Shown here: piece by piece, positions 252 through 63,340 of the stretch | Position numbering within the stretch: the stretch's first letter is position 1 | Layout: every line of letters begins with the position of its first letter | Source of the DNA: an uncultured Methanosarcinales archaeon | Lineage (GTDB): Archaea > Nanobdellota > Nanobdellia > Woesearchaeales > ARS49 | Direction of reading: 5' to 3' | DNA: 64,000 bases | Assembly: GCA_964550175.1 (NCBI GenBank) | Contig: CAZJXP010000001.1 | Coordinates: 248,294-312,293 of the forward strand | Translations under genes and position numbers: made by a program | Notes under the pieces: generated by a model | Databases searched by the model: none | What the model saw: the letters and a program-made list of their open reading frames with translations, nothing else | Told to the model about the DNA's origin: nothing

Positions 252-525
252 GCAATTCAAATTCTGGAAGCACGCGCCTGAGCAGTCTCCTGGACTGGAG
301 CCGTACGAGCCGCAAGGGATGCCCGGCATGCAGCCAATGGAGCCCGATCCTTCGTTAACTCAGAATAACTCGTTCCAGCAGATGGCGCAATTGACGCCCA
401 AGAGCGACAAGGATTTGGAGCTCGTGAATGCGAAACTGGACGTGATTAAGGCTCAGCTGGATAACATCATGCAGCGCTTGGATAAGATGGAACGGCAAGA
501 GTCGAAAGAGAAAGTCCGATGGTGA
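244..525 (+). CDS. small coiled-coil protein, hypothetical
   Basis: 93-aa ORF. The C-terminal half has heptad-like K/E/L-rich sequence (LELVNAKLDVIKAQLDNIMQRLDKMERQE). Overlaps the lspA start by 7 nt. Confidence 0.5.
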   Translation: MLEQFKFWKHAPEQSPGLEPYEPQGMPGMQPMEPDPSLTQNNSFQQMAQLTPKSDKDLELVNAKLDVIKAQLDNIMQRLDKMERQESKEKVRW

Positions 526-965
526 GAAAGTACTGGTTCTGGGTCATTGCGATTATCGTTGTCATGCTGGATCAGCTGACGAAAGCGATTGTCGTCACGA
601 AAATCCCGTTCAATACTTCGGTCGAAGTCCTTGGTTCTGTTCTTTCGTTCACGTCGGTGCACAACACCGGCGCGGGATTCGGGATACTGCAAGGGCAGAA
701 CTCATTGTTCATTTTGGTTGCGTTGGTCGCGATAATAGTCATTGTTTGCACCTTGCGGAAGACTTTAGAGGACCACCACACGACAATCTTTGTTGCTTTG
801 ATACTCGGTGGAGCTATCGGGAATTTGATAGATAGAATTCTTTACGGGTTTGTCGTTGATTTCATTGATTTTCACATCTGGCCCGCGTTCAACGTCGCTG
901 ACTCCGCTTTGTGTATTGGAGTTATTGGATTGATTTGGCTGTCGCTTATTGAGAAGAAGAAGTAA
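519..965 (+). CDS. lspA: lipoprotein signal peptidase (signal peptidase II)
   Basis: 148 aa with 4 TM segments. Conserved SPase II boxes VHNTGAGFG and FNVADSALCIGV. Confidence 0.85.
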   Translation: MVRKYWFWVIAIIVVMLDQLTKAIVVTKIPFNTSVEVLGSVLSFTSVHNTGAGFGILQGQNSLFILVALVAIIVIVCTLRKTLEDHHTTIFVALILGGAIGNLIDRILYGFVVDFIDFHIWPAFNVADSALCIGVIGLIWLSLIEKKK

Positions 966-976
966 TTTTGCTAGCA

Positions 977-1071
977 CGTTTCTTTTTACCGGCACGTTTT
1001 GTTTCGTCGTTACGTTAAGCAATTTATTTACAATAAAACTAACACTACGACCAATATCGCTGGTAAAAATG
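977..1071. repeat. MITE-like interspersed repeat copy (TIR ctttttaccggcacg ... cgctggtaaaaatg)
   Basis: Inverted motif at 977-995 and direct motif CGACCAATATCGCTGGTAAAAATG at 1048-1071. Homologous to copies at 2361, 10643, 41491, 51273 and 63224. Confidence 0.6.
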
Positions 1072-1089
1072 TAGCGAGGAAAAGCAAGA

Positions 1090-1422
1090 CTAAATTATCT
1101 TATTCTGCTGAGCCGCTTCGACTATGCGTTCGAGCGGGTTGAGCTTTTCGATCTTAATCTTGAGAATCTTTGCTTGCTGTTTGGTGACATACGTTTTTGC
1201 CACGTACTTGAATTCTCGCTCAGTGACGCAATGAGTATAATCGCATCGACAGGCAAGACACTGCAAAGAGTCATCGCCGTGCATATTCTCATACACGAGC
1301 GGTGTGCCATCGATCGGGCACGTTTCATCCATCGCTTGCTGGTTGTGGCTCAACTTATATTTCTCTTTGAACACTGGAGAAAAGACAGATTCGCCTTCCG
1401 TGTCGCTGGAACCGATACCCAT
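1090..1422 (-). CDS. hypothetical protein, possible Cys-rich zinc-ribbon-like
   Basis: 110-aa ORF with CPIDG...CLACRCDYTHC. Abuts the upstream membrane gene. Confidence 0.5.
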   Translation of the reverse strand: MGIGSSDTEGESVFSPVFKEKYKLSHNQQAMDETCPIDGTPLVYENMHGDDSLQCLACRCDYTHCVTEREFKYVAKTYVTKQQAKILKIKIEKLNPLERIVEAAQQNKII

Positions 1423-1918: not shown

Positions 1919-2281
1919 TCAGAATTCGTTGACGTTTTCCAATGCCTTCAGTAGGCCCTTCTTTCTGAGAACATCCGCCTGGTGCGGTCGGTACTTGAAC
2001 ACGACGTCGCCTTTCTCATGGCCGCCCAATTCCCACGGCTCGATGAGCAAAATATCATTTTCTCGCACCCACAAGGTGCGCTTCAAGCGGCCCGGGATCC
2101 TGCAGATTCTTGTTAAACCATCAAGGCACTTGACTCTCAAGTGCGAGCCGCCCAATCTTTGCTCGCAGAGGCCGATAACCTGGTTGTTGCGCGGCATCGG
2201 CGTGCGACGGATTTCGTCGGACAGCTGCTGCTCCTTCGCTTCCCGAGTTTCTCGGCTATTCATGCTCTTGTCTTTCTGCAT
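1919..2281 (-). CDS. eif1a: translation initiation factor aIF-1A (eIF-1A homolog)
   Basis: The core EQRLGGSHLRVKCLDGLTRICRIPGRLKRTLWVRENDILLIEPWE matches the archaeal aIF-1A OB-fold consensus. Confidence 0.9.
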   Translation of the reverse strand: MQKDKSMNSRETREAKEQQLSDEIRRTPMPRNNQVIGLCEQRLGGSHLRVKCLDGLTRICRIPGRLKRTLWVRENDILLIEPWELGGHEKGDVVFKYRPHQADVLRKKGLLKALENVNEF

Positions 2282-2360
2282 TGAAACGATAGGTTAGAAG
2301 TGGGTTTATAAGGGTTTCCCTGAACGTTCGTCGTTGGACTTTCTGCGCTTTTCTGCTTTC

Positions 2361-2492
2361 CACGTTGCTCTCCCCGGCAGATATCTCGAACGTTGCGTTC
2401 GAGAATTTTCGAACCGAGTTCGAAATTTTTGAGTTCGCGTGAGGTCGTAGATGATTAATGCCAACACTCGACCAATATCGCCGGTAAAAAGT
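2361..2492. repeat. interspersed repeat copy (CACGTTGCTCTCCCCGGCAGAT ... CGACCAATATCGCCGGTAAAAAGT) containing two adjacent 7-bp-stem hairpins
   Basis: 5' block shared with 7134, 10661 and 41491. The 3' 24-mer is identical to 63291-63314. Internal palindromes are TCGAACGttgCGTTCGA and TTCGAACcgaGTTCGAA. Confidence 0.6.
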
Positions 2493-2567
2493 TTGCCTGG
2501 GACGCAATCATTGGGCTTCCAGAATGTTTAAATAGCGTAAAAGAAATCAACTGAAACAGGTGATACC

Positions 2568-3383
2568 ATGAACGTTCAAGATATTCTTCGCACAAACCAG
2601 CTCGAAATCAGCGCGACCGACACGCTGTCCAGCGTCTTCGGCAAGCTCAGCAAGGGGCACACGGAAGCGCTCGTCGTTGACGAAAAGGGACACTATGTCG
2701 GCATGCTCTCGAAACGCATGCTGTTGAAGAGCCGCATCGACGCCTCCATCACCAAGGCAAAGAACTACGTCATGAAAACGGCCACGTTGACGAACACGAC
2801 GACGCTGGAACGCGCGGCAGAACTCTTGAACGCGTCCGACACCCACGTCCTTCCAGTGTTGAACGGCGAAAAAGTCATCGGCATCTGCGGGGCAAGAGAC
2901 GTTTTGGCATCATTGCAATCAAACTTCGGCACGCGTAAGGCGATTGAATTGGGAAGCACCAAGCTCGTCGTGTTGCAAGAAGGCGACGCCATCGTGAAAG
3001 CACTTGCGTTATTGCGCGAAAAGCACATCGACCGAATCCCGGTCGTGGACAAGAACGGAAAGCTTTCGGGCATCATCTCCGTCATCGACATCCTCTTGCG
3101 ATACGGGTCCGGCACGCCGCACGGCGCGGTCTCGGGCAGAAACGCGAAGCAAGGCAAGACCTCGCACTCCGGCGGCGACGCGGGCGACCGGCCCGACTAC
3201 ACGCAGCTCCCGGTCTCGAACATCATGACGAAGATTGTCACCACGTGCTCGCCGAACGCGAAAGCGGCTGATGTGATTAAATTGCTGAACGACCAAGGAA
3301 TATCTTCGGTCATTCTTGTGCAGCAAGATTTGCCGGTCGGCATCGTGACGACGAAAGATTTGTTACGTGAGGTCACCAAGTGA
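2568..3383 (+). CDS. CBS-domain protein (tandem CBS pairs)
   Basis: 271 aa with repeated CBS-like segments (hydrophobic-x-V/I-x-D...G-I-I-T-x-D-L). Confidence 0.8.
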   Translation: MNVQDILRTNQLEISATDTLSSVFGKLSKGHTEALVVDEKGHYVGMLSKRMLLKSRIDASITKAKNYVMKTATLTNTTTLERAAELLNASDTHVLPVLNGEKVIGICGARDVLASLQSNFGTRKAIELGSTKLVVLQEGDAIVKALALLREKHIDRIPVVDKNGKLSGIISVIDILLRYGSGTPHGAVSGRNAKQGKTSHSGGDAGDRPDYTQLPVSNIMTKIVTTCSPNAKAADVIKLLNDQGISSVILVQQDLPVGIVTTKDLLREVTK

Positions 3384-6830: not shown

Positions 6831-7124
6831 GTGAAAGGAAAAACAACGCCGTTATTGCGGGATTGCCCTGAAAAACTTCAGTTCAAGACCGCGCACGGCC
6901 AGGTGCTACGGAACTACGTGGACCTGATTGACGGACTGAAACGAATGGAGGATTCGACGTTTCGGCACCACGTGAACGAAGGAAGGAATGACTTCCGGAA
7001 CTGGGTGCTGCACGTGTATTCGGATGAGAAGCTGGCGAAAGACTTCGAGCACAATCCGACTCGACTCGGAATGGCGCAGAATACTTCACGTCGATTGAAG
7101 AATCTCGCTATGGAGCATGGATGA
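6831..7124 (+). CDS. hypothetical protein, paralog 1 of a three-gene tandem family
   Basis: GTG start 5 nt after the GH57 stop, with RBS aggtga. Shares the motif L..Y.DLIDGL..M.D.TF..HVN.GRNDF..W with the next two genes. Confidence 0.6.
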   Translation: MKGKTTPLLRDCPEKLQFKTAHGQVLRNYVDLIDGLKRMEDSTFRHHVNEGRNDFRNWVLHVYSDEKLAKDFEHNPTRLGMAQNTSRRLKNLAMEHG

Positions 7125-7133
7125 TGGTTTTTG

Positions 7134-7164
7134 ACGTTGCTCTCCCCGGCAGATTTTGTAGAGT
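7134..7164. repeat. partial interspersed-repeat copy (GACGTTGCTCTCCCCGGCAGATTTTGTAGAG)
   Basis: Matches the 5' block of the repeats at 2361 and 41491. Confidence 0.5.
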
Positions 7165-7296
7165 CGTTACGCAAATAGTTAACAACGACTCAAAATCTGC
7201 AAGGACGAACCAACGACGCGACAGCAAACGTGCGGGAACAGCAACGCAACAAGCTTTAAAAACAGCAAAAATAATGACTCAGCAAAGAGGTGTGGA

Positions 7297-7596
7297 ATGA
7301 AGGCACAAGCGACTCCGAAGACAACCGTCCTAGGCAGCGCTCCCGAAGGAAAGGCCTTTGTTCTTCATGATGGACGAAAGTTAAGGACGCTCTACGAACT
7401 CATTGATGAATTGGAGACAATGAACGATGATACGTTCAAGTCATTTGTTCACCAAGGCAAGAACGATTTTGCTTCTTGGATTGAAGGCGTGTTCCAAGAG
7501 AAAACATTAGCTGACGAGCTGCGCAAAACTCCCTCTCGTACTGACCACCAGAAAATCATACTCAAACATCTTGTTCGATTATTGAGGAAACCATGA
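7297..7596 (+). CDS. hypothetical protein, paralog 2 (shared TF..HV..GKNDF..WI domain)
   Basis: 99 aa. RBS gaggtg before the ATG. Conserved L.TLYELIDELETMNDDTFKSFVHQGKNDFASWI. Confidence 0.6.
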   Translation: MKAQATPKTTVLGSAPEGKAFVLHDGRKLRTLYELIDELETMNDDTFKSFVHQGKNDFASWIEGVFQEKTLADELRKTPSRTDHQKIILKHLVRLLRKP

Positions 7597-9251: not shown

Positions 9252-9463
9252 AATTGGTATGACTGAGATAGACTATTTAAAGGTTGCCCTTGTAATGGTC
9301 GATCACGATATTTGATGTGAATATATAACCACACAAACTAGAACCGCAAATCTTCCGCTTTTTCCGGAAAGTTTTCGGTTTTTCTCGAGCAAACGTTATG
9401 AATTCTGTTTGGTTATGTTTGTTCATGAGCGAAACTTTAATAAGTAAGCCCTGCCTTACCGAA

Positions 9464-9718: not shown

Positions 9719-9966
9719 CCATAAGCATTCTGCCGGCAGCAGAAAAGTTTCTCCGCAAATGCGAAAAAGAGCTATTTCTTCGCCTACGCGAACGCATTTA
9801 TTCCCTTGAACATAATCCGTTTCCTCCTGATTGCGAACGCCTAAAAAGCAAAGAAAAAATCTTCAAGGTACGCGTTGGCGACTACAGGATATTCTATGAC
9901 TACTTCTCTGAAACACTCATCATCTTGAGAATCAGAAAACGGGATAATGCCTACTTGAATGACTAA
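9715..9966 (+). CDS. relE: RelE/ParE-family toxin
   Basis: 83 aa. KVRVGDYRIFYDY...LIILRIRKRDNAY matches the RelE/StbE core. ATGA overlap with the antitoxin. Confidence 0.75.
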   Translation: MTISILPAAEKFLRKCEKELFLRLRERIYSLEHNPFPPDCERLKSKEKIFKVRVGDYRIFYDYFSETLIILRIRKRDNAYLND

Positions 9967-12311
9967 CGCTTGTTCGCAAAGACAAATTGGTAGTCCTTGC
10001 CTTCTAACAACGTTATGAGCGCGTTCTCGTACGGGAAGAACGTGTAGGTCGCGGATGGTAATGAATCTAAGTTTATTCTTTCCTCGTTCTGGATTTGGCT
10101 TATTACCGTGGCGTTTGTGGCTTCTAAGAAGTTCAATACTGGCTTTCCTGTGGCTACGAAATCCTTGAACTCCCAACGGTTCGTTCCCTTGTTGACGAAG
10201 AACCTGTACTCCATCATGAACGTGGTTTGGTCCTTGCCGAGAATTGCTTTTACTGTTGGACTGCCGACGTTTTCAACTGTAACACCGGTAAACGCCTTGA
10301 AATTGTCGATGCACTTGATTGTTCTGGCTTTCGTATCCTCTCCTACGTCTAATTCTATTCTTTCTAATGGTAATTGGTTGTCAACCCCTTGGAGGTAGTC
10401 GAAGGCGGTTGTTGGCGTGGTTTGGAACGGGGTTTGCAAGGCGAGATGACCTCCTTGGAGGCCTAATACTTTCAAGGTGTCTTCGCCCGCGAGTTTAAGA
10501 CAGTTGTTGACGTACTCTTGCACGGTTGATTCTGATTTTACTACAATATGGTCTGGGACTGTGATGAAAAGCAATAACATGGCTACGGCTAAGATTACGA
10601 CGCCTAAGAGCATGAAGATGGTTAATTGGCCGCGGGATGAGCGTTTACTTTTTTTACCACTGCTGACCCCGGCAGATTTTGAGTTAGTGGCTCGATTGAG
10701 CTTTGAATGATGGCCTAAACGCGTCCAATCTTGGCGGTAAAAAGTCTTGCCGGGGCGCGACATGGCAACTCCGGCTAATATCACCGCGAACGAAGCGAAC
10801 AGCAACGCGTGAACTGAAGTGAGATGCTTGATTAATTCTGCAATCTTACTGTGTCCTGCGGGGTAGACGGTCAAGACAACCCCATTCCTCTGGTAATCAA
10901 CCGTGTTGTCGTCCACTTTCATGACCGAAGGGCTGTACGCGGTGCGGTAAGACTTGATCCAGGACTGCGTGAGCTTTTCTTTGGTTATCTTGTCGTTGAT
11001 GGTGAGCAAGCGTTCGGTTGACGTTCCATGCTGGATGGCCTCTTCGATGGTTATGTAGTTGCTGACGACCGTCTTGTACGGAGGGGCGTCGTTCAGGATC
11101 AAGACGTCGTTGATGAACGCGTTGTCCTTGTCGAACGTCAGGATGGCTTTCGCGTCCTTGTTGCCCGTTGTGAAGAACGTGACCAATCCTTCCGACTTGC
11201 CGTCCTTCTTTATTTGTGGCTTGTTGAGGTCGACGATTCCCCTGATTTCCAACGCGTGGTTCGGAAGGTCGAAGATCGAGCAGGACTTGCAGGACTTCAC
11301 TTCAGGCGGGAACGCGTCGGAGTCGGACTTTCTCAGGAAGATATCGTGATTGTCCTGCCAGGCACGGATGCTGAAGTCTTTAGTTGCGTCCTTCGCATCA
11401 TAGGTGTACAACGTGACGGGCTCCATATGGATGTGCTGCATCCCGTCAGTTCTTGAGACTTCGACCTTTGCGGAATTGTTAGATTCTACTGTTTCCGTTA
11501 TTCCGTTCTTTTCCAATTCGATTTGGACATCTATTAGGTCTAATACGGTTGTTGTGGTGCTCTTTGAAATGACTAAAGAGGAATCATCTGAGAGAGACTT
11601 GAAATCGTACTGGTTCGTCGAACAGTCCTTGATCTTGAATTCGGAATCCTTATCCGCGTCGATGGTCACGTCGGTTTTAGCCGTAATCTTCGCGTTTTCA
11701 ACATCTTCCATGTAAACGCAGCTCGCCCAGACGGAATCTGCTTTCTTTACGTCAATCGTCTTGTCGCAATAATTGACTTTATCGAGCTTAGTTGCGATAG
11801 TGTCGGTTTCTACGAGAGAATCGGCTGTGTCGGCGGTTAAACAACCATTTTCGTATTTTACATTCTTGCCGTTGGTGATGACTATGGGGCCTTGCTGGAG
11901 GGAACCGACGGAAGCGATTGAGTAGCCGCCGCCTTGGACAGAAACGCCCGTTACATCAGCAGCCTTGCCAGAACCTTTCGGAGTATCCATACTTTTTGCG
12001 TATGTTAAATGACCACTTGCATCAACTTTCCCGCCAACAACATGCGTGAAAACATTACCATCAGCATCCGTAAATTTGTCCGTATCAACATTATAGGATC
12101 CATCAGGATTTTTGGTTGCCGTACCACCTTCATAAGTGGCGCCATTGGCATCTTTAGCCATTGTGTCAGGAGTAATATCTTGTTTCACACCAGCATCGCC
12201 ACCTCCACCCGGACCATCACTTGGAGGAGGAGTTGTTCCATCAGCGATTACTGCGACTGAAAGTAAAAGTAGAACAACAAGTAGTATAGGGATAACACCT
12301 CTTTTACTCAT
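9963..12311 (-). CDS. large secreted surface protein, with signal peptide and internal hydrophobic anchors; an interspersed repeat lies in frame at 10643-10746
   Basis: N-terminal signal MSKRGVIPILLVVLLLLSVAVIADG. A TM segment plus basic tail (LLFASFAVILAGVAMSRPGK) is typical of an archaeal C-terminal anchor. It is followed by repeat-encoded sequence and then a second TM segment. The 782-aa ORF may really be two genes, roughly 10750..12311 and 9963..10640. Confidence 0.55.
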   Translation of the reverse strand: MSKRGVIPILLVVLLLLSVAVIADGTTPPPSDGPGGGGDAGVKQDITPDTMAKDANGATYEGGTATKNPDGSYNVDTDKFTDADGNVFTHVVGGKVDASGHLTYAKSMDTPKGSGKAADVTGVSVQGGGYSIASVGSLQQGPIVITNGKNVKYENGCLTADTADSLVETDTIATKLDKVNYCDKTIDVKKADSVWASCVYMEDVENAKITAKTDVTIDADKDSEFKIKDCSTNQYDFKSLSDDSSLVISKSTTTTVLDLIDVQIELEKNGITETVESNNSAKVEVSRTDGMQHIHMEPVTLYTYDAKDATKDFSIRAWQDNHDIFLRKSDSDAFPPEVKSCKSCSIFDLPNHALEIRGIVDLNKPQIKKDGKSEGLVTFFTTGNKDAKAILTFDKDNAFINDVLILNDAPPYKTVVSNYITIEEAIQHGTSTERLLTINDKITKEKLTQSWIKSYRTAYSPSVMKVDDNTVDYQRNGVVLTVYPAGHSKIAELIKHLTSVHALLFASFAVILAGVAMSRPGKTFYRQDWTRLGHHSKLNRATNSKSAGVSSGKKSKRSSRGQLTIFMLLGVVILAVAMLLLFITVPDHIVVKSESTVQEYVNNCLKLAGEDTLKVLGLQGGHLALQTPFQTTPTTAFDYLQGVDNQLPLERIELDVGEDTKARTIKCIDNFKAFTGVTVENVGSPTVKAILGKDQTTFMMEYRFFVNKGTNRWEFKDFVATGKPVLNFLEATNATVISQIQNEERINLDSLPSATYTFFPYENALITLLEGKDYQFVFANKR
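10643..10746. repeat. complete MITE-like repeat copy located in frame inside ORF 9963..12311
   Basis: TTTACTTTTTTTACCACTGCTGACCCCGGCAGATTTTGAG...CCAATCTTGGCGGTAAAAAGTC, with an internal hairpin GCTCgattGAGC. Confidence 0.6.
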
Positions 12312-26095: not shown

Positions 26096-26344
26096 ACCGA
26101 GAATAGTGGAAAATAGGGTATTTAAAGGTTATGAAGGAAATTATTGATTGTTTTAGCTCTAACTGCTCAAAATCTATCGGGGAAAGAACGGCCGGGGACG
26201 ACGTGTTCCGACATTGTTGAGCTGAGAGAACGTTGCAAACCTGTTTCCGAAGGAAACAGATATCATTTGTTTCTCGAAGCGAGACAAAGAGGAATTTAAT
26301 CAAATTTTAGAAAAATTTGAAAAATAAAAAAGAAGAAATCAGCC

Positions 26345-29840: not shown

Positions 29841-29883
29841 AAAACAGTCTAAGCGATTGTTTTTTAGGTGCGTTTCGCAGGAA

Positions 29884-29930
29884 AAACCGGAAGATTTGCG
29901 GAAAAAGCGGAAGAATTGCGGAAAATCGCT
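29884..29930. repeat. 2.5 tandem copies of a 20-bp direct repeat (aaaaagcggaagaattgcgg)
   Basis: ccggaagatttgcgg aaaaagcggaagaattgcgg aaaatcgc. Lies upstream of, or in the extended 5' end of, the subtilase gene. Confidence 0.5.
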
Positions 29931-29997
29931 TGGCTCCAATATAAAGAAAACGCTAACTCTAACGACGAAACAAAACGGGGCGGTAAAAAGTTTACGT

Positions 29998-31758
29998 CTA
30001 CAAGAATGTCATATTTCTGCACTTAAGAGAATGCGCCAGAAGCACCAGTTTCTTGAGGTCTTCCGTCTTAACGGGCTTCGTAATCGGGAACGTGACCGGC
30101 CCGTCGCACCATTTCTGGAACGCGGCCTGCAGCTTGAGCTGGTGCTCGGCAGACGCTTTCGTGACAAATAGCTTCGCTCCCTTCGGCAACACGCCTTTCT
30201 GCGCGACCTTGACGATGTCCGCCTTAGTCAAGCCGTTCTTTTTCGCGAACTCGGCAAACAGCGGATGCACCTCCAGCCCATCAGCGAATTTAACAGCATA
30301 GGATAACGGTTCAAGCATCTTCACGCCCGCGATTGCCGTAACGGCGCTCGGAATTATCGCGGTGACTGAGGCGTTGCGCGTTCCCTTGCTTTTCTTGTCC
30401 TTCGCGTCGAAATTCGGGAACGAGCCGCGCTTCGCCAACTCATTCGACGCTTTTCGCGCCTCATCTGAGATGAATTTCATGAGCTTCTCAGCGTGTTCAA
30501 TCGCTTTCGGCGAATCATACGAAATGCCGAGCTTGATGAGCATTTCTGCAAACCCCATCACGCCGAGCCCGATACGTCGATGCGCTTTCGTTATCGCTTC
30601 GCTTTCAGGAGAGGGATATACCGTCACATCGATGGCGTTGTCGAGGAAATGGACGGCGTCGCGAGCGGCTTGCGCCAACCGTTCCCATTCGGGCTTGCCA
30701 TTCTTGACGAACAACGACACGTTCAAGAAACCTGAAAACCAGGACTCCAACGGCACAGGCTCGTCAAGCGTGAGCAACGGCTCGCTAGAGTGGATGATGC
30801 GCAGCGCGATAAGGTCGAAGACCTCCTTCGCCTGCAAGGAACGCGCGAGCTGGTGCGTCTTAGGGTTGACAAGATGATACGCGGACGAAGTCGAAACCGC
30901 CTTCAAGAACGCGTCCGTGAGCACGACTTGCGACGATTTCGCCGTAAATTCAAGAATGTCTGGATGGTCGATGCGCAAACTTGCGGTGTGCATGGCGCGC
31001 TTCACGACCTCGGTCGAAGTCTCGAACAGGCGCAAGAAACTCATCGGGCCAGAAGCGACGCCGTGCTTGACTTTGTCCCCTTTCGGCCGGATGTGGGAGA
31101 ATGAAATGTTCGCGTGCGTGCCCGCGTGCTGGATAAGGGCAGCTTGCTTAAGCGTTTCGAATATTTCCGGAAGCGAGTCTCCGACGCGCAGGGAAATTGC
31201 TGAAACAAGATTGTTCGACGCGCCCGCGTTCTTCAGGATGGTTTCGTTCGGCAAAAACTCGAGCTTGGACAGCATCGCAAAGAAGCGGTCTTCCACTTTT
31301 GAGAGGTTTTTCGCGTCATGCGCGCGGTCTCCTTGAGCTACGACCTTCGCGACGCGGCGGAACAGCCGCACCGGAGTCTCGGCAATCGTTCCCTGATCGG
31401 AGCGCAGCAGATACTGTTCGCCAAGAACTCGCAAGGTCGTGTCGCTCAACCCTAATTCGTCGCGCACGCCCAGGAAGGTTCTAAATTCTCGCACTTTGTG
31501 CTGGCCGCGGTACTGCAACAAGGATTTGGTCGATTGCTTGTTTTTCAGCAAAGTTTCTTCAATGATGTCTTGAACGTCCTGCGTTGTTGGAATTATAGTG
31601 GAGAACAGTTTCGTCACTGTTTGAACGACGCTTTCGGCGAGCTTCTTCGGGTTCGCCTTCGTGTTTTCAACGGCCTTCGTTATCGCGAGAAGAATCTTTT
31701 GGGGTTGGAACAACTCCAAGGATCCATCACGCTTCCGGATCTGGGCGAGTTTCGCCAT
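29998..31758 (-). CDS. ribonucleotide reductase class II-like paralog with N-terminal ATP-cone, lacking the catalytic cysteines
   Basis: The ATP-cone (AKLAQIRKRDGSLELFQPQKILLAI) and the segment GVASGPMSFLRLFETS...ASLRIDHPDILEF align to nrdJ (GGTSSGLMSFLKVFDTG...KMVCLDIDHPDILSF). The protein has only 2 Cys in total and no NPCxE motif. Confidence 0.7.
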   Translation of the reverse strand: MAKLAQIRKRDGSLELFQPQKILLAITKAVENTKANPKKLAESVVQTVTKLFSTIIPTTQDVQDIIEETLLKNKQSTKSLLQYRGQHKVREFRTFLGVRDELGLSDTTLRVLGEQYLLRSDQGTIAETPVRLFRRVAKVVAQGDRAHDAKNLSKVEDRFFAMLSKLEFLPNETILKNAGASNNLVSAISLRVGDSLPEIFETLKQAALIQHAGTHANISFSHIRPKGDKVKHGVASGPMSFLRLFETSTEVVKRAMHTASLRIDHPDILEFTAKSSQVVLTDAFLKAVSTSSAYHLVNPKTHQLARSLQAKEVFDLIALRIIHSSEPLLTLDEPVPLESWFSGFLNVSLFVKNGKPEWERLAQAARDAVHFLDNAIDVTVYPSPESEAITKAHRRIGLGVMGFAEMLIKLGISYDSPKAIEHAEKLMKFISDEARKASNELAKRGSFPNFDAKDKKSKGTRNASVTAIIPSAVTAIAGVKMLEPLSYAVKFADGLEVHPLFAEFAKKNGLTKADIVKVAQKGVLPKGAKLFVTKASAEHQLKLQAAFQKWCDGPVTFPITKPVKTEDLKKLVLLAHSLKCRNMTFL

Positions 31759-36642: not shown

Positions 36643-37058
36643 TAGTGCAAATACCCCTGAATCAATCCTAGTGTGTACGCAACGACCTTCTCATGCTCCC
36701 CTTCCCAGTGCGGCGGAACGCTGCGTTCAGCGATAAACCCCACATTCATGAGAATATCCGTCGCAGCCTCGGCAAGAATGCGCGCCTCAAGCATGTCGTT
36801 CGTTTTCAGACAGTGATCCCGAATCGGCTCCAACATGTCGTCACCATACTCCAGCAACCAACGATAGCCCTCGCAGTCTTTGCGACGAGCCATATCCCCG
36901 TTATGCTGAAAAGTCGCAGCATGTTGGTCTAACAGCTTGAACGCAATCGCAAATTTTTCGCAGGACGATTCGCTCAACTGCACCCCATTGAATTCCCGCA
37001 GTTCAGGCACTTGTAGCACGAACCGTTTCTTACAGTCACGTGGCCGCAGGAAGAGCAA
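36642..37058 (-). CDS. hypothetical protein, start uncertain
   Basis: The ORF overlaps the nrdJ 3' end by 85 nt. A TTG at 36977 preceded by ggggtg, or the ATG at MARRK, would remove the overlap. Confidence 0.35.
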   Translation of the reverse strand: MLFLRPRDCKKRFVLQVPELREFNGVQLSESSCEKFAIAFKLLDQHAATFQHNGDMARRKDCEGYRWLLEYGDDMLEPIRDHCLKTNDMLEARILAEAATDILMNVGFIAERSVPPHWEGEHEKVVAYTLGLIQGYLH

Positions 37059-40046: not shown

Positions 40047-40502
40047 TCATTTTTCTTTCTTCAGCATATTGATTTCTTTCTCGAACTGGGCCAAATCCCT
40101 GAATGAGCGGTACACGCTGGCGTAGCGCACATACGCGACTTGGTCTAATGTTTTCAGTTGCGCCATGACTAATTCTCCGACTTTCTTCGACGAAATTTCC
40201 TGCCGGTCGCCCTTGCGCAACGACGCTTCGATCGCCGCGACGCTGGCCTCGATCTTTTCCCGGCCGATGGGACGCTTTTCGCACGCCTTGAAGAAGCCAC
40301 GCATGAGCTTTTCCTTGTTGAACGGCTCTCGCCTGCCATCTTTCTTCACGACCGACAAGTCGACCGATTCCAGATGCTCGTACGTCGTAAATCGCTTCTC
40401 GCAATCGAGGCATTCCCTTCTGCGACGGGTTTCCGAGGAGTCGGACGTCTCGCGGCTGTCCACCACTTTCGACTCGGGATGCAAACAAAACGGGCATTTC
40501 AT
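40047..40502 (-). CDS. nrdR: transcriptional repressor NrdR (zinc ribbon plus ATP-cone)
   Basis: MKCPFC...CLDCEKRFTTYE zinc ribbon followed by an ATP-cone. Directly upstream of nrdJ. Confidence 0.85.
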   Translation of the reverse strand: MKCPFCLHPESKVVDSRETSDSSETRRRRECLDCEKRFTTYEHLESVDLSVVKKDGRREPFNKEKLMRGFFKACEKRPIGREKIEASVAAIEASLRKGDRQEISSKKVGELVMAQLKTLDQVAYVRYASVYRSFRDLAQFEKEINMLKKEK

Positions 40503-41441: not shown

Positions 41442-41490
41442 GAGGGAATGAGATTCCCACAGATATATAATTGTGCCGTCTGAGTTCCTT

Positions 41491-41582
41491 TCACGTTGCT
41501 CTCCCAGGCAGTTATTGTAGAGTTTCGGCCATAATTCTAGATACAATGGAGCCACTACTTCCAAACTGGGCGGTAAAAAGTT
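41491..41582. repeat. interspersed repeat copy (CACGTTGCTCTCCCAGGCAG ... CTGGGCGGTAAAAAGT)
   Basis: Shares both blocks with the copy at 2361. Confidence 0.55.
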
Positions 41583-41630
41583 AACTTTGACATGATAAAC
41601 TTTAAGTAGCTCGCGCAACGAAGCCAGACC

Positions 41631-42404
41631 ATGAACATCACAGTCAAGGACTTCAACCTCGCGGACACGGTCGAGTCCGGCCAACTGTTCCGCTGGGAGA
41701 AGAAAGGAAACGGCTATGTTATCCGCAACGGCGGGAAATCGTTCTACGCCGAACAGGAAAATCCGAAGACGCTCTCGTTCGACGGCGTCGATGAGCCGTT
41801 CATCCGCGAATTCTTCGACCTCAGCACGGACTACGGCAAGATAAAGAAGACGATTTCGGCTGAAAAGCTCGCGCCCATCATCGAAAAGCATCCCGGCATA
41901 AGGATCGTCAGGCAAGACCCTTGGGAATGCACCATCGGGTTCATCTGCAGCTCGAACTCGAACATCACGCGCATACGGAACAACATGAACTCGCTGACGA
42001 CGTGTTTCGGCAAAGGACATGTGTTCCCGATGCCGTCGGACATCAAACAAGGAGCAAAGCTCGACAGCTGCAGACTCGGCTACCGGGCGGAGTACGTGCG
42101 CAGCATCAGCAAGCAAATAACCCCGGAATTCCTGCACTCGCTCAAAAATGAAAATTATGCAAACGCGAAAGAAAAACTGATGGAATTGCCCGGTATCGGC
42201 CCGAAAGTCGCGGACTGCATCTGTTTGTTCGCGCTTGGGTTCACGGAGGCGTTCCCGGTAGACACACACATCCAGCAGGCGATGGCCGCGATGTACGGCG
42301 TCGAAAAAGAGAAGGAAATTCGGGCGTTCGCGGCGAAGAAATGGGGCAAGCTCGCGGGCTACGCACAGCAGTACATCTTCCACTGGCGGAGAACAACATC
42401 GTAA
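41631..42404 (+). CDS. ogg: 8-oxoguanine DNA glycosylase / HhH-GPD family (archaeal Ogg type)
   Basis: LPGIGPKVADCICLFALG and FPVDTHI (HhH-GPD with catalytic Asp). Confidence 0.8.
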   Translation: MNITVKDFNLADTVESGQLFRWEKKGNGYVIRNGGKSFYAEQENPKTLSFDGVDEPFIREFFDLSTDYGKIKKTISAEKLAPIIEKHPGIRIVRQDPWECTIGFICSSNSNITRIRNNMNSLTTCFGKGHVFPMPSDIKQGAKLDSCRLGYRAEYVRSISKQITPEFLHSLKNENYANAKEKLMELPGIGPKVADCICLFALGFTEAFPVDTHIQQAMAAMYGVEKEKEIRAFAAKKWGKLAGYAQQYIFHWRRTTS

Positions 42405-44615: not shown

Positions 44616-47600
44616 TTAAGATTTCCGCTTCTTCTCGGCCTTGTCGTGGGCCAAGTGGCGCCAGTGAACCGCCAATGAGAAGAATGTCGCCGCAATAAAG
44701 AACGCCAGCAACGCCAACAACCACCAGGGAAGCTCCTTCAATGCGCTCACAACTGCATTATCTGGAGCGGGAGGCTGCCTTACCGGGAACGCCGGGATTG
44801 AACGTATGACCACAACACGGCCATCAACCTGGTCGCCGACAAGCACCCGGTCGCTTCCGCGAGCGAACGCTCCGCCGTCTTCTGAGACGCCGCCAAACGT
44901 CGCGCCTTGCGGCTCGCACAGTTCATCGAACAAATCTTCCTGCTCTGGACCCCATTGCCCGTTTTGGCAGAACTGAACGCGGTCATCCGCGGGGTTGCAC
45001 GCGAACCAGCCAGGATTGCACTCGAGCTTGGCACAGCTGGCCGCGTAATCCTCATCGGACTGCTCAATCGGAGCCCAATGCTCGTCAACGCACAACTCTT
45101 CGCGTTCCAAATCAAAATTGCACTGGCGTTCGCTGCCTTCGCACTCGGGCAGAGGAACAATCACATCATCTGCGGGAGGCAATCCCTCCACGCACGCCTG
45201 CTCGTAACCGCCAACAATCGGAAAGTACTCGCCGCCATCGCAAACCGAGAACTGCTGAAGTTCGTCGTCGCAAATAGAATCTCCCTCATTACAACCTGAC
45301 GCGGCAGCCAAACCGCCGCAATTTTCGCCCGGGACCGTCTCATCCATCGACCAGAACCCGAATTCGTTGCAGCTCCAATACGAGCTGTCGCCTTCAAAAA
45401 ATTCGCAATGCTGCTCGCCCGGAACGCATTCCTGTCCGGGATCGGCAACGCAATTTTCCTCATACGCGGCAGGATCAGAAATGAATATGGCTCCGGTCGC
45501 CGCCTGCAAGTACGCGTTGCGCTTCAGTTGAGCGGAAGCGAACACGCTCTCAGACTCCCGATTTCCCGCATCGTCCGCTATCGGACGATTCTCTCCCGCG
45601 CCAGCGCCGGAATAGCCTCCTGCCGGAGGCGGGGTCGAGCTCGCCGGATTTGTCAGCCACTCGCCGTTCGCATTGCACACACGGTATTCTAATAGTTCGG
45701 CATCGCAGAACGTTTCTCCATACAGGCACTCCGCCTGGAAACAGTTGTTTTGCACTTGAGCCGGATCGCGAGTGGTCGCCCAACGGCCGTCCTCCTCGCA
45801 GTAATGGAACGCATACTCCTCCTCGCTTATCTCACACTGAGTCGCCCCAGGATTGCACTCAGGAACATCCTGCGCGCAGTAATCAAAGAAACCATCTTGC
45901 ACGCCGACAACCGCCATGTTTGCGGATGCGAGCGTCGCCCAATGGCCCGACGCGTCACAGCGCTGGAACGAGTATTCGGCGTTGTCGCACAATATCTCGC
46001 CCGGATTGCACTCGGTCGATGCCGCGCAAGGCCCCTGATACATGTACTCGCCGTTGCTGCATGAATAGGCCATTCCCGTCGGAGTGCAAAAATCTTCCTG
46101 ACCGGCGCACGCGTCGTTCTCGCAATATTGCGACCATAAATACGCATCATCAATCGCCGGACTCCAGAATCCCATCGGGCTGCAGAGCGTGACCGTGCCC
46201 TCAAAACAGACGCTCGTTCCCGGCATGCACGATTCTTCAGGAGGAACGCCGCACTGCGTTTCATACAATCCGTCAACCGGAGTCAAGAATCCGCTGATGC
46301 AGATTGACGCCGTCTCGGTTGCGTCATCGCACACGGGCGGGCTGTTCGGGTTGCATCCCGGAACCGTTGGACAGCCGCAGACCGGGCAGTCTGAACCGCC
46401 GCAATCCACACCAGTCTCATCACCATCTTGAACACCGTTCGGGCAATGGACTCGGGGCGTTGAACAGGTCGGACAGCCACCGCCGCAGTCCACTCCGGAC
46501 TCGTCTGAATCTTGCACGCCGTTCGCGCAATGTCCGGCGCATGCCGGGCAGTACGCGCCACCGCAGTCAACGCCCAGCTCATCGAAGTCCTTGACATCAT
46601 TATAGCAGTTGTCGCCGGGCAAAGCCACGCCGGCGCCCACCGTCTTGTAAACTGAAAACGCAACGCTCTTGGAAAAGCTCTCATCGTCAATGTCGCCGAG
46701 CACCTTGTTCACAACAAGCTGGTACTGTCCCGCGACGGGAGCTTGCTTCATCTTGTACACGACCAAAAGATATTTGATGTCGTCGACCGTAGGATCCATC
46801 TCAAACGCGGGCTGAATGGATACGTACATTTCGTTGTCGCCATCGGGCCAAGCTCGTTCGCCGACGAGCGTGTCAACATACGGAAGATAGACCCCGTCCG
46901 AGTTTGCGTCAATCGCGACAATCACTTTTTCGACGCCGGTCGCGGTGCCGTCACCGGAATATTTCATGCCTATCTGCTTCACTTCAATCAGCTTTTTGCC
47001 CTGAACCTGCAGCTTGAGCTGCAACATCACGTTGTACACATCCTCTCCTGGCTGCCAGCTGTGGTCGCCCGGAGTCTTTTCGCCCGCGGTCACCGTAAGA
47101 TCCGAGCAAGGCGTCGAGCAGTCTCCCCCGCAGTCAACGCCGTCCTCATCATCATCCTGAATTCCGTTCGAGCATACATCAGTTGATTGACACACGCCGC
47201 TGGCGCAGTACGCGCTTTGGCAGTCAGCGGAAGTCGCGCACGTTTTTCCGTTCGCGCAATCCGAGCACGTGCCGCCGCAATCGACGTCAGTTTCCGCGCC
47301 GTTCTTGGTTCCATCCGTGCATGACGCCAAGGCGCCAGTGCAAGCGCCACCAGTGCATCCCGCATATCCCTGAGACGTGCAAAGCTGATTCGTTGAGCCT
47401 ATGGCGTAGGTATAGTAATTATAGCACGTTGGCGGCCCGACCCCGCCGGAACTGCAGGATTGCTGAAGCGTGGGCGTGCAATAGTTTTCGCTCACGTAAC
47501 AGCTAGCGCCCGTGCATGAAGAAACCTGAGAATACCCTGAAATGCACACGTCGCTCCGCTGAACCCAGTCCCCGGGGCCGGGCACGCTAGCATAGGAATA

Positions 47601-47738
47601 ATTGATTCGTCCGAACACATTATAGACTTGGCCGCCATCGGAATCAGAGCAATACGTCACGGTCTGAGCAGAAACCGCGAACGAGGAGAGCACGAAGGCT
47701 ACAATCAACAGAATGATTGTGCCTGTGAAACGACTCAT
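44616..47738 (-). CDS. large cysteine-rich extracellular protein with signal peptide, repeated acidic Cys modules (D-x-D-E-x-G-V-D-C-G-G-x-C-x-x-C) and C-terminal TM anchor
   Basis: 1040 aa. Signal MSRFTGTIILLIVAFVLSSFAVSA. At least five GVDCGG modules and many C-x-x-G-x-W-type Cys pairs. C-terminal WWLLALLAFFIAATFFSLAV plus a basic tail. Confidence 0.7.
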   Translation of the reverse strand: MSRFTGTIILLIVAFVLSSFAVSAQTVTYCSDSDGGQVYNVFGRINYSYASVPGPGDWVQRSDVCISGYSQVSSCTGASCYVSENYCTPTLQQSCSSGGVGPPTCYNYYTYAIGSTNQLCTSQGYAGCTGGACTGALASCTDGTKNGAETDVDCGGTCSDCANGKTCATSADCQSAYCASGVCQSTDVCSNGIQDDDEDGVDCGGDCSTPCSDLTVTAGEKTPGDHSWQPGEDVYNVMLQLKLQVQGKKLIEVKQIGMKYSGDGTATGVEKVIVAIDANSDGVYLPYVDTLVGERAWPDGDNEMYVSIQPAFEMDPTVDDIKYLLVVYKMKQAPVAGQYQLVVNKVLGDIDDESFSKSVAFSVYKTVGAGVALPGDNCYNDVKDFDELGVDCGGAYCPACAGHCANGVQDSDESGVDCGGGCPTCSTPRVHCPNGVQDGDETGVDCGGSDCPVCGCPTVPGCNPNSPPVCDDATETASICISGFLTPVDGLYETQCGVPPEESCMPGTSVCFEGTVTLCSPMGFWSPAIDDAYLWSQYCENDACAGQEDFCTPTGMAYSCSNGEYMYQGPCAASTECNPGEILCDNAEYSFQRCDASGHWATLASANMAVVGVQDGFFDYCAQDVPECNPGATQCEISEEEYAFHYCEEDGRWATTRDPAQVQNNCFQAECLYGETFCDAELLEYRVCNANGEWLTNPASSTPPPAGGYSGAGAGENRPIADDAGNRESESVFASAQLKRNAYLQAATGAIFISDPAAYEENCVADPGQECVPGEQHCEFFEGDSSYWSCNEFGFWSMDETVPGENCGGLAAASGCNEGDSICDDELQQFSVCDGGEYFPIVGGYEQACVEGLPPADDVIVPLPECEGSERQCNFDLEREELCVDEHWAPIEQSDEDYAASCAKLECNPGWFACNPADDRVQFCQNGQWGPEQEDLFDELCEPQGATFGGVSEDGGAFARGSDRVLVGDQVDGRVVVIRSIPAFPVRQPPAPDNAVVSALKELPWWLLALLAFFIAATFFSLAVHWRHLAHDKAEKKRKS

Positions 47739-50845: not shown

Positions 50846-51414
50846 ATAACGTTCGTCGTCATCTTTACGCCCGGAAACAAGTTGTGCTCCTTCGCGAACC
50901 CGGCTTCGACTTCCACGACGTACATCGCGGCCTTGTTCGTCGGATATGTCGCGCAAGGGCTCTTGTCGCACGGCGGCGTGTTTTCCTTGATCTCGTTCAC
51001 GGTGAACGTTTCGTCCAAGAAGATGATGTCCAACGGTATGAGCATGTCTTTCATCCAGAACGTGCGAGGAATGGATTCTTCAAAAACGAACAGCATCCCC
51101 TCGCCGGGTGCGAGCGTCTTGCCCATCAATCCAGCAGATCGTTCATCCGCGTCATCAGCGACCGCAACAAGAACGTTCACGTAGCCCTCGCCGTTGAAGA
51201 ACGTCACCTTCGGGTGCGGAGCGCAGGAGGCCAACAAAAGTAACGCGAATAGTACGAACGCTGTCCTTACACCACTTTTTACCGGCGAATTTTGAGTTGT
51301 CGTAGTAATCGTGTTACTCAAACGTCCAATCGGGGCGGTACAATCCGAATCCAGTGGGTTCGGATGTACAAGAGGACTTCGAGTCCTCTTTGTAAAAAGT
51401 TTACTCACGTCCAC
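50842..51414 (-). CDS. DUF192 (COG1430) family protein with lipobox (LLASCAP); 5' portion coincides with an interspersed repeat, true start uncertain
   Basis: The mature part (GEGYVNVLVAVADDADERSAGLMG...) is DUF192-like. The first 45 codons are encoded by repeat copy 51273-51404 and overlap the sppA 3' end. Confidence 0.55.
   Translation of the reverse strand: MDVSKLFTKRTRSPLVHPNPLDSDCTAPIGRLSNTITTTTQNSPVKSGVRTAFVLFALLLLASCAPHPKVTFFNGEGYVNVLVAVADDADERSAGLMGKTLAPGEGMLFVFEESIPRTFWMKDMLIPLDIIFLDETFTVNEIKENTPPCDKSPCATYPTNKAAMYVVEVEAGFAKEHNLFPGVKMTTNVI
51273..51404. repeat. interspersed repeat copy (inverted CACTTTTTACCGGCG ... GGGGCGGTACAA) followed by hairpin AAGAGGACttcgaGTCCTCTT
   Basis: Motifs and an 8-bp perfect stem seen directly. 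Confidence 0.5.
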
Positions 51415-52343
51415 ACCTGCGGCTTATCTAACTTCGTGAATTGTTGCCCGATGCCACTCCCGATCGAAAACCCGAAATCGTTGGTTACGCCGAAAAGTTC
51501 ATCCATGAACGTCAACGGCGTGCTGAACTCGACGATTTCTGCAGTGATGTTCAACGATTCCTCGAGCGAGGCAATCGCGTCCTCTTCCGTGCCTATCTTG
51601 TCAATCAACCCGAGCTCTAATGCTTCGGAGCCAAGATAGACCCAGCCGGTCGCGATTTTACGGACTTTGTCTTCGGGCAAGCCGCGATTCTCGGCAACGG
51701 CCTTAATGAAGACATCATGAATCTTATCCAACTGCCCCTGGAACAAATCTTCCTCCTTCCGAGTCAAATGCTTGAACGGGCTGCCAGTCTCCTTGAATTC
51801 CCCTGCGGTTAACGATTGGTAGGTCGCGTTGTAGCGCTCCAACGTTCCCGCGAACTCGAGGTAGCTCGCCAACACCCCGATGCTGCCGACCATGCTCAGC
51901 CGGCTCGCGAATATTTTGTCCGTCGCGGAAGCCGCCCAGTACGCGCCTGACGCCCCCATTTCCCTAATCACTGCGACGGATGGCTTAATCATGCCGTTTA
52001 TTTCCGACGCGATCTCTTCCGTCGCGACTGGAGTTCCGCCGGGCGAATTAATCCTGAAAATGACTGCCTTGATGTGGTCATCCTCCTCGGCCTCATGAAT
52101 CCACTGCACGACATCCCCGCTTGCGACGCCGGTTTCGCCGAACGCGGCAGATCCCGTAGTTATCACGCCGTCGATCGGAATGATCGCTATGTTGCCTTCG
52201 TTGAAGGTTGTCGGGGCGCTAAATGACGCGATGATGATGAAGAACAGAAACAAAAAGAACAGCACCGACAGAATGCCCGAGATGATTCCTATGACTGCGA
52301 GGATTGTTTTCAGGACAGAACGCTCTTCCACCGCTTTTTTCAT
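51405..52343 (-). CDS. sppA: signal peptide peptidase SppA (peptidase S49)
   Basis: N-terminal TM, and GSIGVLASY / GASGAYWAAS with catalytic Ser/Lys regions typical of S49. Confidence 0.85.
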   Translation of the reverse strand: MKKAVEERSVLKTILAVIGIISGILSVLFFLFLFFIIIASFSAPTTFNEGNIAIIPIDGVITTGSAAFGETGVASGDVVQWIHEAEEDDHIKAVIFRINSPGGTPVATEEIASEINGMIKPSVAVIREMGASGAYWAASATDKIFASRLSMVGSIGVLASYLEFAGTLERYNATYQSLTAGEFKETGSPFKHLTRKEEDLFQGQLDKIHDVFIKAVAENRGLPEDKVRKIATGWVYLGSEALELGLIDKIGTEEDAIASLEESLNITAEIVEFSTPLTFMDELFGVTNDFGFSIGSGIGQQFTKLDKPQVWT

Positions 52344-59062: not shown

Positions 59063-59162
59063 AGTGTTCCTTGATGAGCGAATGTTTTTAAATGCATCGA
59101 TGAACGTAAGTTATAACTCTCAGGGCTCACGCAATAACGGCCGGGGCCAGCAACGAAAAAAG

Positions 59163-60413
59163 ATGGTAAAGATATCTAACGCAAAATCACTTTCCTCCTC
59201 TCCTGCCACGAAGGCGTGCGTCGAAATTCTTAATGCCGCCCTTGACGCAGTCAATCCTGAGAAGGCGCTGGCCGAGAAAGTCAGAGTATTGGGCGACACG
59301 CTGCACGTTGATGACAAGCGCTACGATTTGACGCGGTACAAGCGACTCTTTGTCGTTGGCGCGGGAAAAGCGTCTGGCACGATGGCCGCGCTGCTCGAAA
59401 AGATGCTCGGCAACCGGATAACGAAAGGAATGCTGATTGATATTACGCCGCTAAAATTAAAACACATCACGGTTGTCGCAGGCGACCATCCGGTCGTTTC
59501 GTTGAATAACGTCAATTACACGAAAAAGATTCTTCAAATTACAAAAGACATGAACGTCAACGACTTGGTCCTCTGCGTCTTTTCCGGCGGTGGCTCGGCG
59601 TTATTTTCCGATCCTCGCATTCCGCTGGCAAAATATCAGGAGTTGAGCAAATCGTTATTACGTTCGGGCGCGACCATTCAGGAATTTAACACGGTGCGTA
59701 AGCACCTCGATTCCGTGAAGGGCGGACGGTTTGCGTCGCATTTGTTCCCGGCGACGGTCGTCACGCTGATGATCTCTGACGTGCCGGGCAACGACCCGTC
59801 GTTCATCGCGTCCGGACCGACGGTGCATGATTCGACGACAGTGAAGGATTCGCAACGTATCCTCGCAAAGTACGGACTTCCTCAGCCTGCATTTTCCGAA
59901 ACCCCGAAAGAGACGTTCTCAAAAGTACAAAATTTGATTTTCCTTGACAACGGCAACGCCATCCGGGCGATGGCGAAGAAAGCCGAAGAGCTTCATTTGA
60001 CGCCGGTTATCATCGGCGATCGATTGTCCGGCGAAGCGCGCGAGATGGGCATCACGCTGCTGCACAAGCTCGGCAAAAAGACCGCCGTCATCGGCGCGGG
60101 CGAAACTACTGTTACGGTTAAAGGAAAAGGAAAAGGCGGACGCAACCAAGAATTAGTCTTGGGTAGCGTCATCGCATTATCTGAAATGAAAAACACGGCA
60201 TTAGCTTCGATGGGAACGGACGGCCGGGACAACTCCGACGTCGCGGGCGCGATCGCCGACGAAAAAACATTATTCCTGGTGAAAAATCTCGACGTGAAAA
60301 CGTTCTTGAACGCGAACAACTCCTACGAGTACTGGAAGAAAACGAAACGGCACATCAAGACCGGACCGACGGGAACGAACGTCTCGGATGTCATGCTCGC
60401 AGTCCGACTTTAA
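59163..60413 (+). CDS. glycerate 2-kinase, MOFRL family
   Basis: VLCVFSGGGSALF and GTDGRDN motifs. Start placed at the ATG at 59163 (MVKISNAK); the upstream part of the ORF lacks signals. Confidence 0.8.
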   Translation: MVKISNAKSLSSSPATKACVEILNAALDAVNPEKALAEKVRVLGDTLHVDDKRYDLTRYKRLFVVGAGKASGTMAALLEKMLGNRITKGMLIDITPLKLKHITVVAGDHPVVSLNNVNYTKKILQITKDMNVNDLVLCVFSGGGSALFSDPRIPLAKYQELSKSLLRSGATIQEFNTVRKHLDSVKGGRFASHLFPATVVTLMISDVPGNDPSFIASGPTVHDSTTVKDSQRILAKYGLPQPAFSETPKETFSKVQNLIFLDNGNAIRAMAKKAEELHLTPVIIGDRLSGEAREMGITLLHKLGKKTAVIGAGETTVTVKGKGKGGRNQELVLGSVIALSEMKNTALASMGTDGRDNSDVAGAIADEKTLFLVKNLDVKTFLNANNSYEYWKKTKRHIKTGPTGTNVSDVMLAVRL

Positions 60414-63170: not shown

Positions 63171-63223
63171 TTCGGAATAAAAACCCCTTTTAAATGTTGC
63201 GGATGGGAATTTGCTGGCACCGC

Positions 63224-63315
63224 GTTACTTTTTACCGCCCAGTTTTGTTCCGTTACGGCATCAATTCTGAATACACTCGAGCTCACGGTACGACCAATAT
63301 CGCCGGTAAAAAGTG
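63224..63315. repeat. complete MITE-like repeat copy (GTTACTTTTTACCGCCCAG ... CGACCAATATCGCCGGTAAAAAGTG)
   Basis: 13-bp terminal inverted motif. The 24-mer is identical to 2469-2492. Internal hairpin CCGTtaACGG. Confidence 0.6.
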
Positions 63316-63340
63316 CGACGCAGAAAAGAGCTACCTGGGC

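Follow-up and report, generated by a model that had tools for sequence, protein, structure and literature searches.

What is the repeat of about 100 bp that stands at positions 63224 to 63315 of this archaeal DNA: a mobile element, an RNA gene or a signal of the host? An earlier note, made from the sequence alone, had placed it at eight or more loci, described 13-bp inverted ends around a central hairpin, and proposed either a non-autonomous mobile element or a family of transcribed small RNAs. We analyzed the whole stretch of 64,000 nucleotides (referred to as the window), which has a G+C content of 50.6% and an ordinary archaeal gene content that includes aIF1A, enolase, GH57 and two ribonucleotide reductases (RNRs), among others. 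The host is a DPANN archaeon, Woesearchaeota-like, since the nearest named homologs of its enolase bear the labels Woesearchaeota or Nanoarchaeota. Flanking DNA of the same organism was added from Logan short-read contigs, which extended the window by 2.0 kb to the left (contig L105) and by 4.3 kb to the right (contig L100).

Copies were linked by repeat finding, alignment and nhmmer profile searches with two module hidden Markov models (HMMs), and the eight loci named earlier all aligned with one another by these approaches, as members of one family. The motif GSCGGTAAAAAGT, with at most one mismatch, was found eight times on the two strands of the window (at 981, 2480, 10733, 29979, 41569, 51274, 63227 and 63302) versus 0.20 matches expected from shuffled sequences, and CACGTTGCTCTCCCCGGCAGAT was found at 2361, 7133 and 41492 with 0 to 2 mismatches, versus none expected. 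The family is thus real and stands clearly above chance. A 24-mer said to recur at three loci is indeed identical at 2469 and 63291, but it has three mismatches at 1048 and not two. The search for further copies yielded two degenerate ones in the window (K and L) and two clear ones in the flanking DNA (I and J), which brings the total in ~70 kb to 10 clear copies plus 2 degenerate ones (Table 1); we assign copy L to the family with low confidence. Extrapolated from these ~12 copies, the density is ~150 copies per Mb, or ~2% of the DNA. The mean column identity among the copies in the alignment is 37%. The copies are thus diverged and the family looks old, with no sign of recent mobility.

Table 1. 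Copies of the repeat in the window and in the flanking contigs of the same organism. Positions are those of the window unless a contig is named; M1, M2 and M3 are the end modules defined in the text.
Copy	Position	Strand	End modules	Setting and features
A	966..1089	+	M1 + M2	Complete, 124 nt; spans the entire convergent-gene spacer, stop codon to stop codon, between LspA (519..965, +) and an ORF (1090..1422, -); T-rich at both ends (TCTTTTTACCGGC and GCTGGTAAAAATG); T5 runs 17 and 20 nt past the two flanking stop codons
B	2346..2510	+	M3 + M2-like	Between divergent aIF1A (1919..2281, -) and CBS (2568..3383, +) genes; left end M3 (CACGTTGCTCTCCCCGGCAGAT), right end T-rich M2
C	7125..7204	+	M3 + own inner part inverted	Between tandem paralogs 6831..7124 and 7297..7596; M3 left end, followed by its inner part again in reverse complement (arm 7184-7200), which makes a long hairpin; no T-rich right end; T5 run 7128-7132, after stop 7122-7124
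D	~10638..10762	+	M3 + M2-like	~123 nt, in frame within ORF 9963..12311 (-); left end ACTTTTTTTACC + M3-like subrepeat; right end GGCGGTAAAAAGT + outer M3-like subrepeat; nhmmer module matches 10638-10690 and 10705-10762
E	29942..29997	-	M1 (single end)	Half copy; nhmmer E = 2e-10; begins 6 nt past stop of RNR gene 29998..31758 (-); adjoins a separate repeated promoter-leader cassette at 29881-29945
F	41474..41600	+	M3 + M2-like	M3 left end, T-rich right end; between divergent TrmB-like (start 41441, -) and OGG (41631..42404, +) genes, both with their own TATA box outside the element
G	51252..51412	+	M1 + M2	T-rich left end; right 13-mer split as GGCGGTA, 54-nt insert, AAAAGT; right end directly at stop codon of NfeD-like gene 51405..52343 (-)
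H (noted locus)	63205..63336	+	M1 + M2	Complete; T-rich 13-mers 63227-63239 and 63302-63314; a PD-(D/E)XK gene stops on one side (63341, -), and an 84-aa gene (start 63164, -) has its promoter on the other
I	L100 1374-1508		M3 + M1	Outside the window; clear copy (profile search)
J	L105 59-123		Single end	Outside the window; clear half copy (profile search)
K	59122..59185	-	Solo M3-like module	Degenerate (TTTTTTCGTTGCTGGCCCCGGCCGTTATTG); nhmmer E = 9e-4; where the genes for PRPP synthase and glycerate kinase diverge
L	26150..26210	-	Possible degenerate end module	CACGTCGTCCCCGGCCG TTCTTTCCCCGATAG ATTTTGAG; nhmmer E = 0.23, read by eye; spacer between two minus-strand genes

Complete copies measured ~124 nt, and the homology extended ~15 to 20 nt outside the 13-mers; the boundaries drawn previously were therefore too tight. 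The general layout consists of two inverted end modules of ~30 nt that flank a variable centre. Three types of end were distinguished, namely, M1 (ACTTTTTACCGSC..GTTTTGTTYCGT), M2 (ACTTTTTACCGGCGATATTGGTCG) and the C-rich M3 (CACGTTGCTCTCCCCGGCAGATTTTGAG), in which T is replaced by C. The earlier note had seen in the C-rich block an addition that marks a sub-family. The block is present at the three CACGTTGCTCTCCCCGGCAGAT positions, but in the alignment each column of CTCTCCCCGGC corresponds to one of the T-rich 13-mer CTTTTTACCGGC, which makes the block a variant end module and not an added one. Both forms stand in tandem in copies D, J and L and at the right end of B, which indicates that the ends are built from CCGGCA-type subrepeats. 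The inverted 13-nt motifs of A, G and H have between 0 and 3 mismatches to the consensus, with weaker inverted homology up to ~30 nt. In B, F and I, a C-rich M3 end lies opposite a T-rich end and has only CCGGC in common with it, and C and E each lack one end. The M3-type copies are thus without a real terminal inverted repeat, the end types are heterogeneous, and the S positions of the two 13-mers mismatch in H and G. The short locus at 29977-29993 is related, as had been claimed, but forms part of a larger, 50-nt half copy in reverse complement (E).

Two copies contain private inserts made of tandem perfect hairpins with stems of 8 to 9 bp. That of B has a length of 44 nt and two perfect hairpins (2383-2426), and that of G has 54 nt, two hairpins and GTA on both flanks (51341-51394). 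We rejected the idea that these inserts represent a third mobile element, since no other copies were found in the available DNA; they could be local palindromic duplications or another tiny element. The ends of Logan contigs (L105, L108, L114 and L100) fall inside copies, at 987/1014, 2403, 7186 and 51361. Most of these breaks (2403, 7186 and 51361) lie in private perfect hairpins, and only that in copy A (987/1014) looks driven by the repeat. Assembly breaks were for this reason discarded as a proxy for copy number.

The gene context differs from copy to copy, as had been described. Copy A separates convergent genes, B and F separate divergent ones, C, E and H were found between tandem genes, and D lies inside an ORF. 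Apart from D, no copy is located within a gene that has family or homolog support. Several features of the neighbouring DNA were recorded alongside. The paralogs around copy C belong to a group of three tandem small genes on the plus strand (6831-7124, 7297-7596 and 7593-8246) with the common pattern ..L..L.DL...L..M....F.HHVN.GKNDF..W, and the third is a weak match to DUF5752. The two RNR genes lie within 10 kb, beside a gene for an NrdR-like regulator with a zinc ribbon and an ATP-cone (the region comprises 29998-31758, 36974-40045 and 40047-40502, all on the minus strand); one reductase has an ATP-cone and a partial match to the catalytic barrel, and the other is of the class II B12-type with a TSCPD domain. 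A 1,040-aa ORF (44616-47738, minus strand) with internal nucleotide repeats of the GCAGTCAACG type (families D3 and D4) and no Pfam match is probably a repetitive surface protein.

A second repeat family was also observed, formed by a TATA box and a leader of ~45 nt (ATTTTCCGCAATTCTTCCGCTTTTTCCGCAAATCTTCCGG) in which TTCCG recurs every ~11 nt. It is present at 29881-29945 (minus strand) and 9320-9384 (plus strand) of the window and at 1-60 of L105 (minus strand), upstream of a subtilase gene, a gene of unknown function and, in a weaker form, a MazE/ParE pair. In two instances, it adjoins the half copies E and J, and contigs L105, L106 and L107 end in it. Its role may be that of an operator array or of a 5' leader. 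A further stretch, at positions 100-225 of L105 (~1.8 kb to the left of the window), stands between copy J, at its T5 end, and the TATA box for the S8e gene. It has ~70% G+C and folds as a long hairpin (minus strand, z = -2.1). It also contains a very basic ORF of 43 codons preceded by GGAGGTGGTG, has no Rfam match, and could be an unannotated small RNA or small protein gene.

Evidence that the repeat inserts comes from copy D, which is an in-frame insert of 41 codons (residues ~518-558) in a protein of 782 aa. Homologs of this protein were gathered by an exhaustive search and a word-index search, and 11 distinct full-length homologs, with 25 to 46% identity, lack the residues of D (two alignments, six and eight, in which P0121 is the only shared homolog). 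Opposite the window residues SRPGKTFYRQDWTRLGHHSKLNRATNSKSAGVSSGKKS, these homologs show a gap of 29 to 41 columns at the exact point of D, preceded by the hydrophobic stretch at the C-terminal end of the first domain and followed by the conserved (K/R)GQ(L/I)T(I/V)F motif, which belongs to the second. The protein alignment delimits the extra codons (~10638-10760) independently of the nucleotide profiles, and the two spans match. Furthermore, the same 782-aa ORF was called in an independent Logan assembly, and since the insert is found in two independent assemblies, it is not an assembly artefact. Its length is a multiple of three and it contains no stop codons, as expected of the survivor of an insertion into a gene that is still needed. 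Taken together, the comparison of predicted proteins establishes copy D as an in-frame insertion into a conserved gene. The empty sites suggested by the earlier note were thus found for D at the protein level, in the 11 homologs, but not at the DNA level: the nearest relatives (enolase 77 to 82% identical) are not syntenic at the sites of the copies, and no close relative was found for such a comparison. The host protein (ORF 9963-12311, minus strand) has no Pfam match and consists of an N-domain, the hydrophobic stretch, the (K/R)GQ(L/I)T(I/V)F motif, which is similar to class III (prepilin-type) signals of archaea, and a C-domain. Many of its homologs are full length (~715 to 776 aa; ~740 to 760 aa for the fused form), and others are split into proteins of ~480 aa and ~245 aa, of which the latter start with MKKRGQ.

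The family appears to be restricted to the lineage of its host. No match to the modules was found in six contigs from relatives (~72 kb; enolase 77 to 82% identical, or a paralog of the D host protein 79% identical), compared with ~12 copies in ~70 kb here. Among the Joint Genome Institute (JGI) metagenomes, neither a strict right-end pattern nor a search for both 13-mers at a distance of 45 to 75 nt gave a match, and pattern scans of IMG/VR and BLAST searches of phage and plasmid collections were equally negative. The degenerate pattern CCAANNNNGSCGGTAAAAAGT retrieved from genome contigs only chance matches in unrelated bacteria.

Of the two explanations offered previously, a mobile element is the best supported. 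Its multiple copies, lack of coding capacity, inverted ends, insertion at D and absence from relatives argue in its favour, but neither a target-site duplication nor a transposase was found. The ends of A and D showed no consistent direct repeat, although a duplication of 2 to 3 bp could hide in boundaries as diverged as these, and a Pfam search of the ~50 main ORFs of the window revealed no transposase or RAYT-like gene. There was also no presence/absence variation between strains, in that copy F was recovered with the same spacer length in contigs from three samples. [quoted passage not shown]

By form, MITEs are nevertheless the closest known kind. They are elements of ~50 to 800 bp without coding capacity that occur in multiple dispersed copies, and archaeal examples are SM1-SM4 of Sulfolobus solfataricus. 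Like prokaryotic MITEs, the repeat described here is short (~124 bp), non-coding, mostly intergenic and multi-copy, it has inverted ends of at least 13 bp in A, G and H, and it is taxon-specific and dense in a DPANN genome. Unlike MITEs, it has three end types and several copies without a true inverted pair, and neither a target-site duplication nor a partner insertion sequence (IS) was found. In an automated cMITE census (PMC11602168), a genome of Woesearchaea reaches 105 MITEs per Mb. We consider it probable (roughly 60%) that the repeat is a lineage-specific, non-coding, MITE-like family of ~124 bp with inverted ends that spread by insertion and now occupies many spacers. The element would be moved by a transposase encoded elsewhere in the genome. 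It is in that case a known kind of small mobile repeat and not a new kind of system.

The position of the copies next to genes raises the issue of a role in transcription. The earlier note had stated that the element is not a fixed promoter or terminator. With regard to promoters, this was correct: the TATA boxes of the flanking genes are located 15 to 35 nt outside the element and ~25 to 30 nt before the start codons, and since each gene has its own box, we rejected the element as their promoter. With regard to terminators, the dismissal looks premature. Archaeal RNA polymerase takes oligo-T as its intrinsic termination signal. Because the ends are inverted, each T-rich end presents ACTTTTTACC, with its T5 run, to transcripts that enter from outside. 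In a small sample of ends, the seven located next to a stop codon (A-left, A-right, C-left, E, G-right, H-right and I-right) all carry at least 5 T at 0 to 30 nt from the stop. Of the six that face promoters, three (B-right, F-right and H-left) contain a T5 run, and three (B-left, F-left and I-left) are M3, the T-to-C variant. In a crude list of 72 genes of the window, the stop is followed by a T5 run at no more than 50 nt in 12 cases, and 5 of these 12 (~40%) receive it from this element.

From the T5 run kept at all seven stop-abutting ends, we infer an archaeal oligo-T terminator that is portable and would act from both sides, as a terminator or as an insulator. At copies A, E, G, H and I, transcripts would then end in the U5 of ACUUUUUACC. 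An element that carries a two-way terminator would be harmless or useful when inserted into a spacer, and this role may explain why copies are tolerated or retained directly after stop codons. Two observations argue in the opposite direction. Three T-rich ends (B-right, F-right and H-left) are turned towards promoters, a place in which termination would be of no evident benefit. The T5 run of copy D falls on the sense strand within a gene that looks intact, which argues that T5 is at most a leaky terminator.

An alternative is that the repeat is not a transposon at all but a cis-regulatory cassette of the host, in which protein-binding or terminator/insulator modules were copied from spacer to spacer, through recombination or gene conversion, and maintained because selection favoured them. 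Such an origin would account for the T5 run at every stop-abutting end, for the tandem CCGGCA-type subrepeats within each end, as expected of protein-binding sites, and for the half copies E and J, whose fusion to the TATA box and TTCCG-periodic leader looks like an assembled terminator-promoter cassette; the missing target-site duplication and transposase are also in line with it. It does not explain copy D, since there is no reason for a regulatory cassette in frame inside a coding sequence, nor the absence of the family from relatives that share the neighbouring genes, nor the homologous centres, which extend the similarity over DNA without a recognisable signal (for example, 45 nt common to H-left and I-right). 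On balance, we regard a host cassette as unlikely.

The proteobacterial REP/BIME and REPIN repeats are mosaics of short inverted units at the 3' ends of genes, typically without target-site duplications; REPINs are inverted pairs that a RAYT transposase (IS200/IS605-like Y1) moves in the form of single-stranded hairpins. Their likeness to the present family lies in the modular mosaic of two inverted units of ~30 nt with a variable spacer, in the mostly extragenic position at gene 3' ends, and in the absent target-site duplications. However, the single modules are neither palindromes nor self-complementary, there is no conserved 5' tetranucleotide of the GTAG type, the hairpin potential is weak in most copies, one copy is intragenic, the element is larger, and neither a Y1 transposase nor a RAYT gene was found in the window by Pfam. 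We consider mobilisation of this type improbable.

The second explanation of the earlier note, small RNA genes, rested on a central hairpin conserved in structure and variable in sequence. This hairpin did not withstand analysis: RNAalifold predicted 0 consensus pairs for seven full copies without the private inserts, and the S positions of the paired 13-mers do not covary (C/C in H, G/G in G). The z-scores of single-copy folds were -1.8, -0.1, -4.7, -1.9, -0.5, +1.0, +1.1 and -1.2, so that five of the eight lie between -1.2 and +1.1 and most folds do not surpass those of shuffled sequences; copy A folds into a long imperfect hairpin (z = -1.8), copy H does not stand out (z = -0.1), and the sole strong value (-4.7, copy G) is due to the private insert of G. 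Rfam gave no match at gathering score anywhere in the window and none in L100 or L105, and when relaxed to E <= 5, it gave four matches, all away from the copies. The repeat is consequently not part of a known structural RNA, as had been considered. Antisense or protein-binding RNAs transcribed within each copy are therefore very improbable, even though the copies are intergenic and ~100 nt long and A and G can form long hairpins, for the copies share no conserved TATA box in their interior, their end motifs appear in the outward direction as A-runs that would not terminate an internal transcript, and the family is not conserved in relatives.

Returning to the MITE-like family, two further groups of bacterial repeats provide parallels. 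The Correia elements of Neisseria (CREE/NEMIS) measure 100 to 155 bp, have inverted ends and occur by the hundreds in spacers, often by gene ends, with documented effects on termination and transcript processing; their ends have 26 bp, they are flanked by a TA duplication, and their terminator activity needs an RNA hairpin. The present family resembles them as a spacer repeat of ~124 bp with inverted ends that may bring transcription signals along, and it would work in the manner of Correia or REP/BIME elements, whose small inverted units in spacers influence the ends of transcripts. It differs in its archaeal host and unrelated sequence, and the signal here would be a plain oligo-T run. The Rickettsia palindromic elements are palindromic repeats of ~100 to 150 bp that can sit in frame in protein-coding genes, adding a peptide segment, just as copy D adds 41 residues to the 782-aa protein. 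Differences are the archaeal host, the lack of any sequence relation, and the fact that only 1 of ~12 copies is intragenic here.

It is conceivable, although we put this forward as a tentative suggestion, that the element has been domesticated. This genome-reduced DPANN archaeon would then use it at many of its transcription-unit ends, a large share of them, as an oligo-T terminator or insulator that is portable and works both ways, with the M3 form kept where it faces promoters, and it could be absorbed as an in-frame linker of 41 residues in a surface or pilin-like protein.

For the lineage itself, the element is a practical marker; it is also a practical cause of fragmented metagenome-assembled genomes (MAGs) and likely of mis-called genes. 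Copy D offers a natural example of a repeat that has become protein sequence. To our knowledge, the distribution of terminators by mobile repeats is documented in bacteria and hardly at all in archaea, and if the T5 ends terminate transcription, this family would be an archaeal case. DPANN genomes of ~1 Mb are thought to be streamlined, and selfish or co-opted repeats persist even there.
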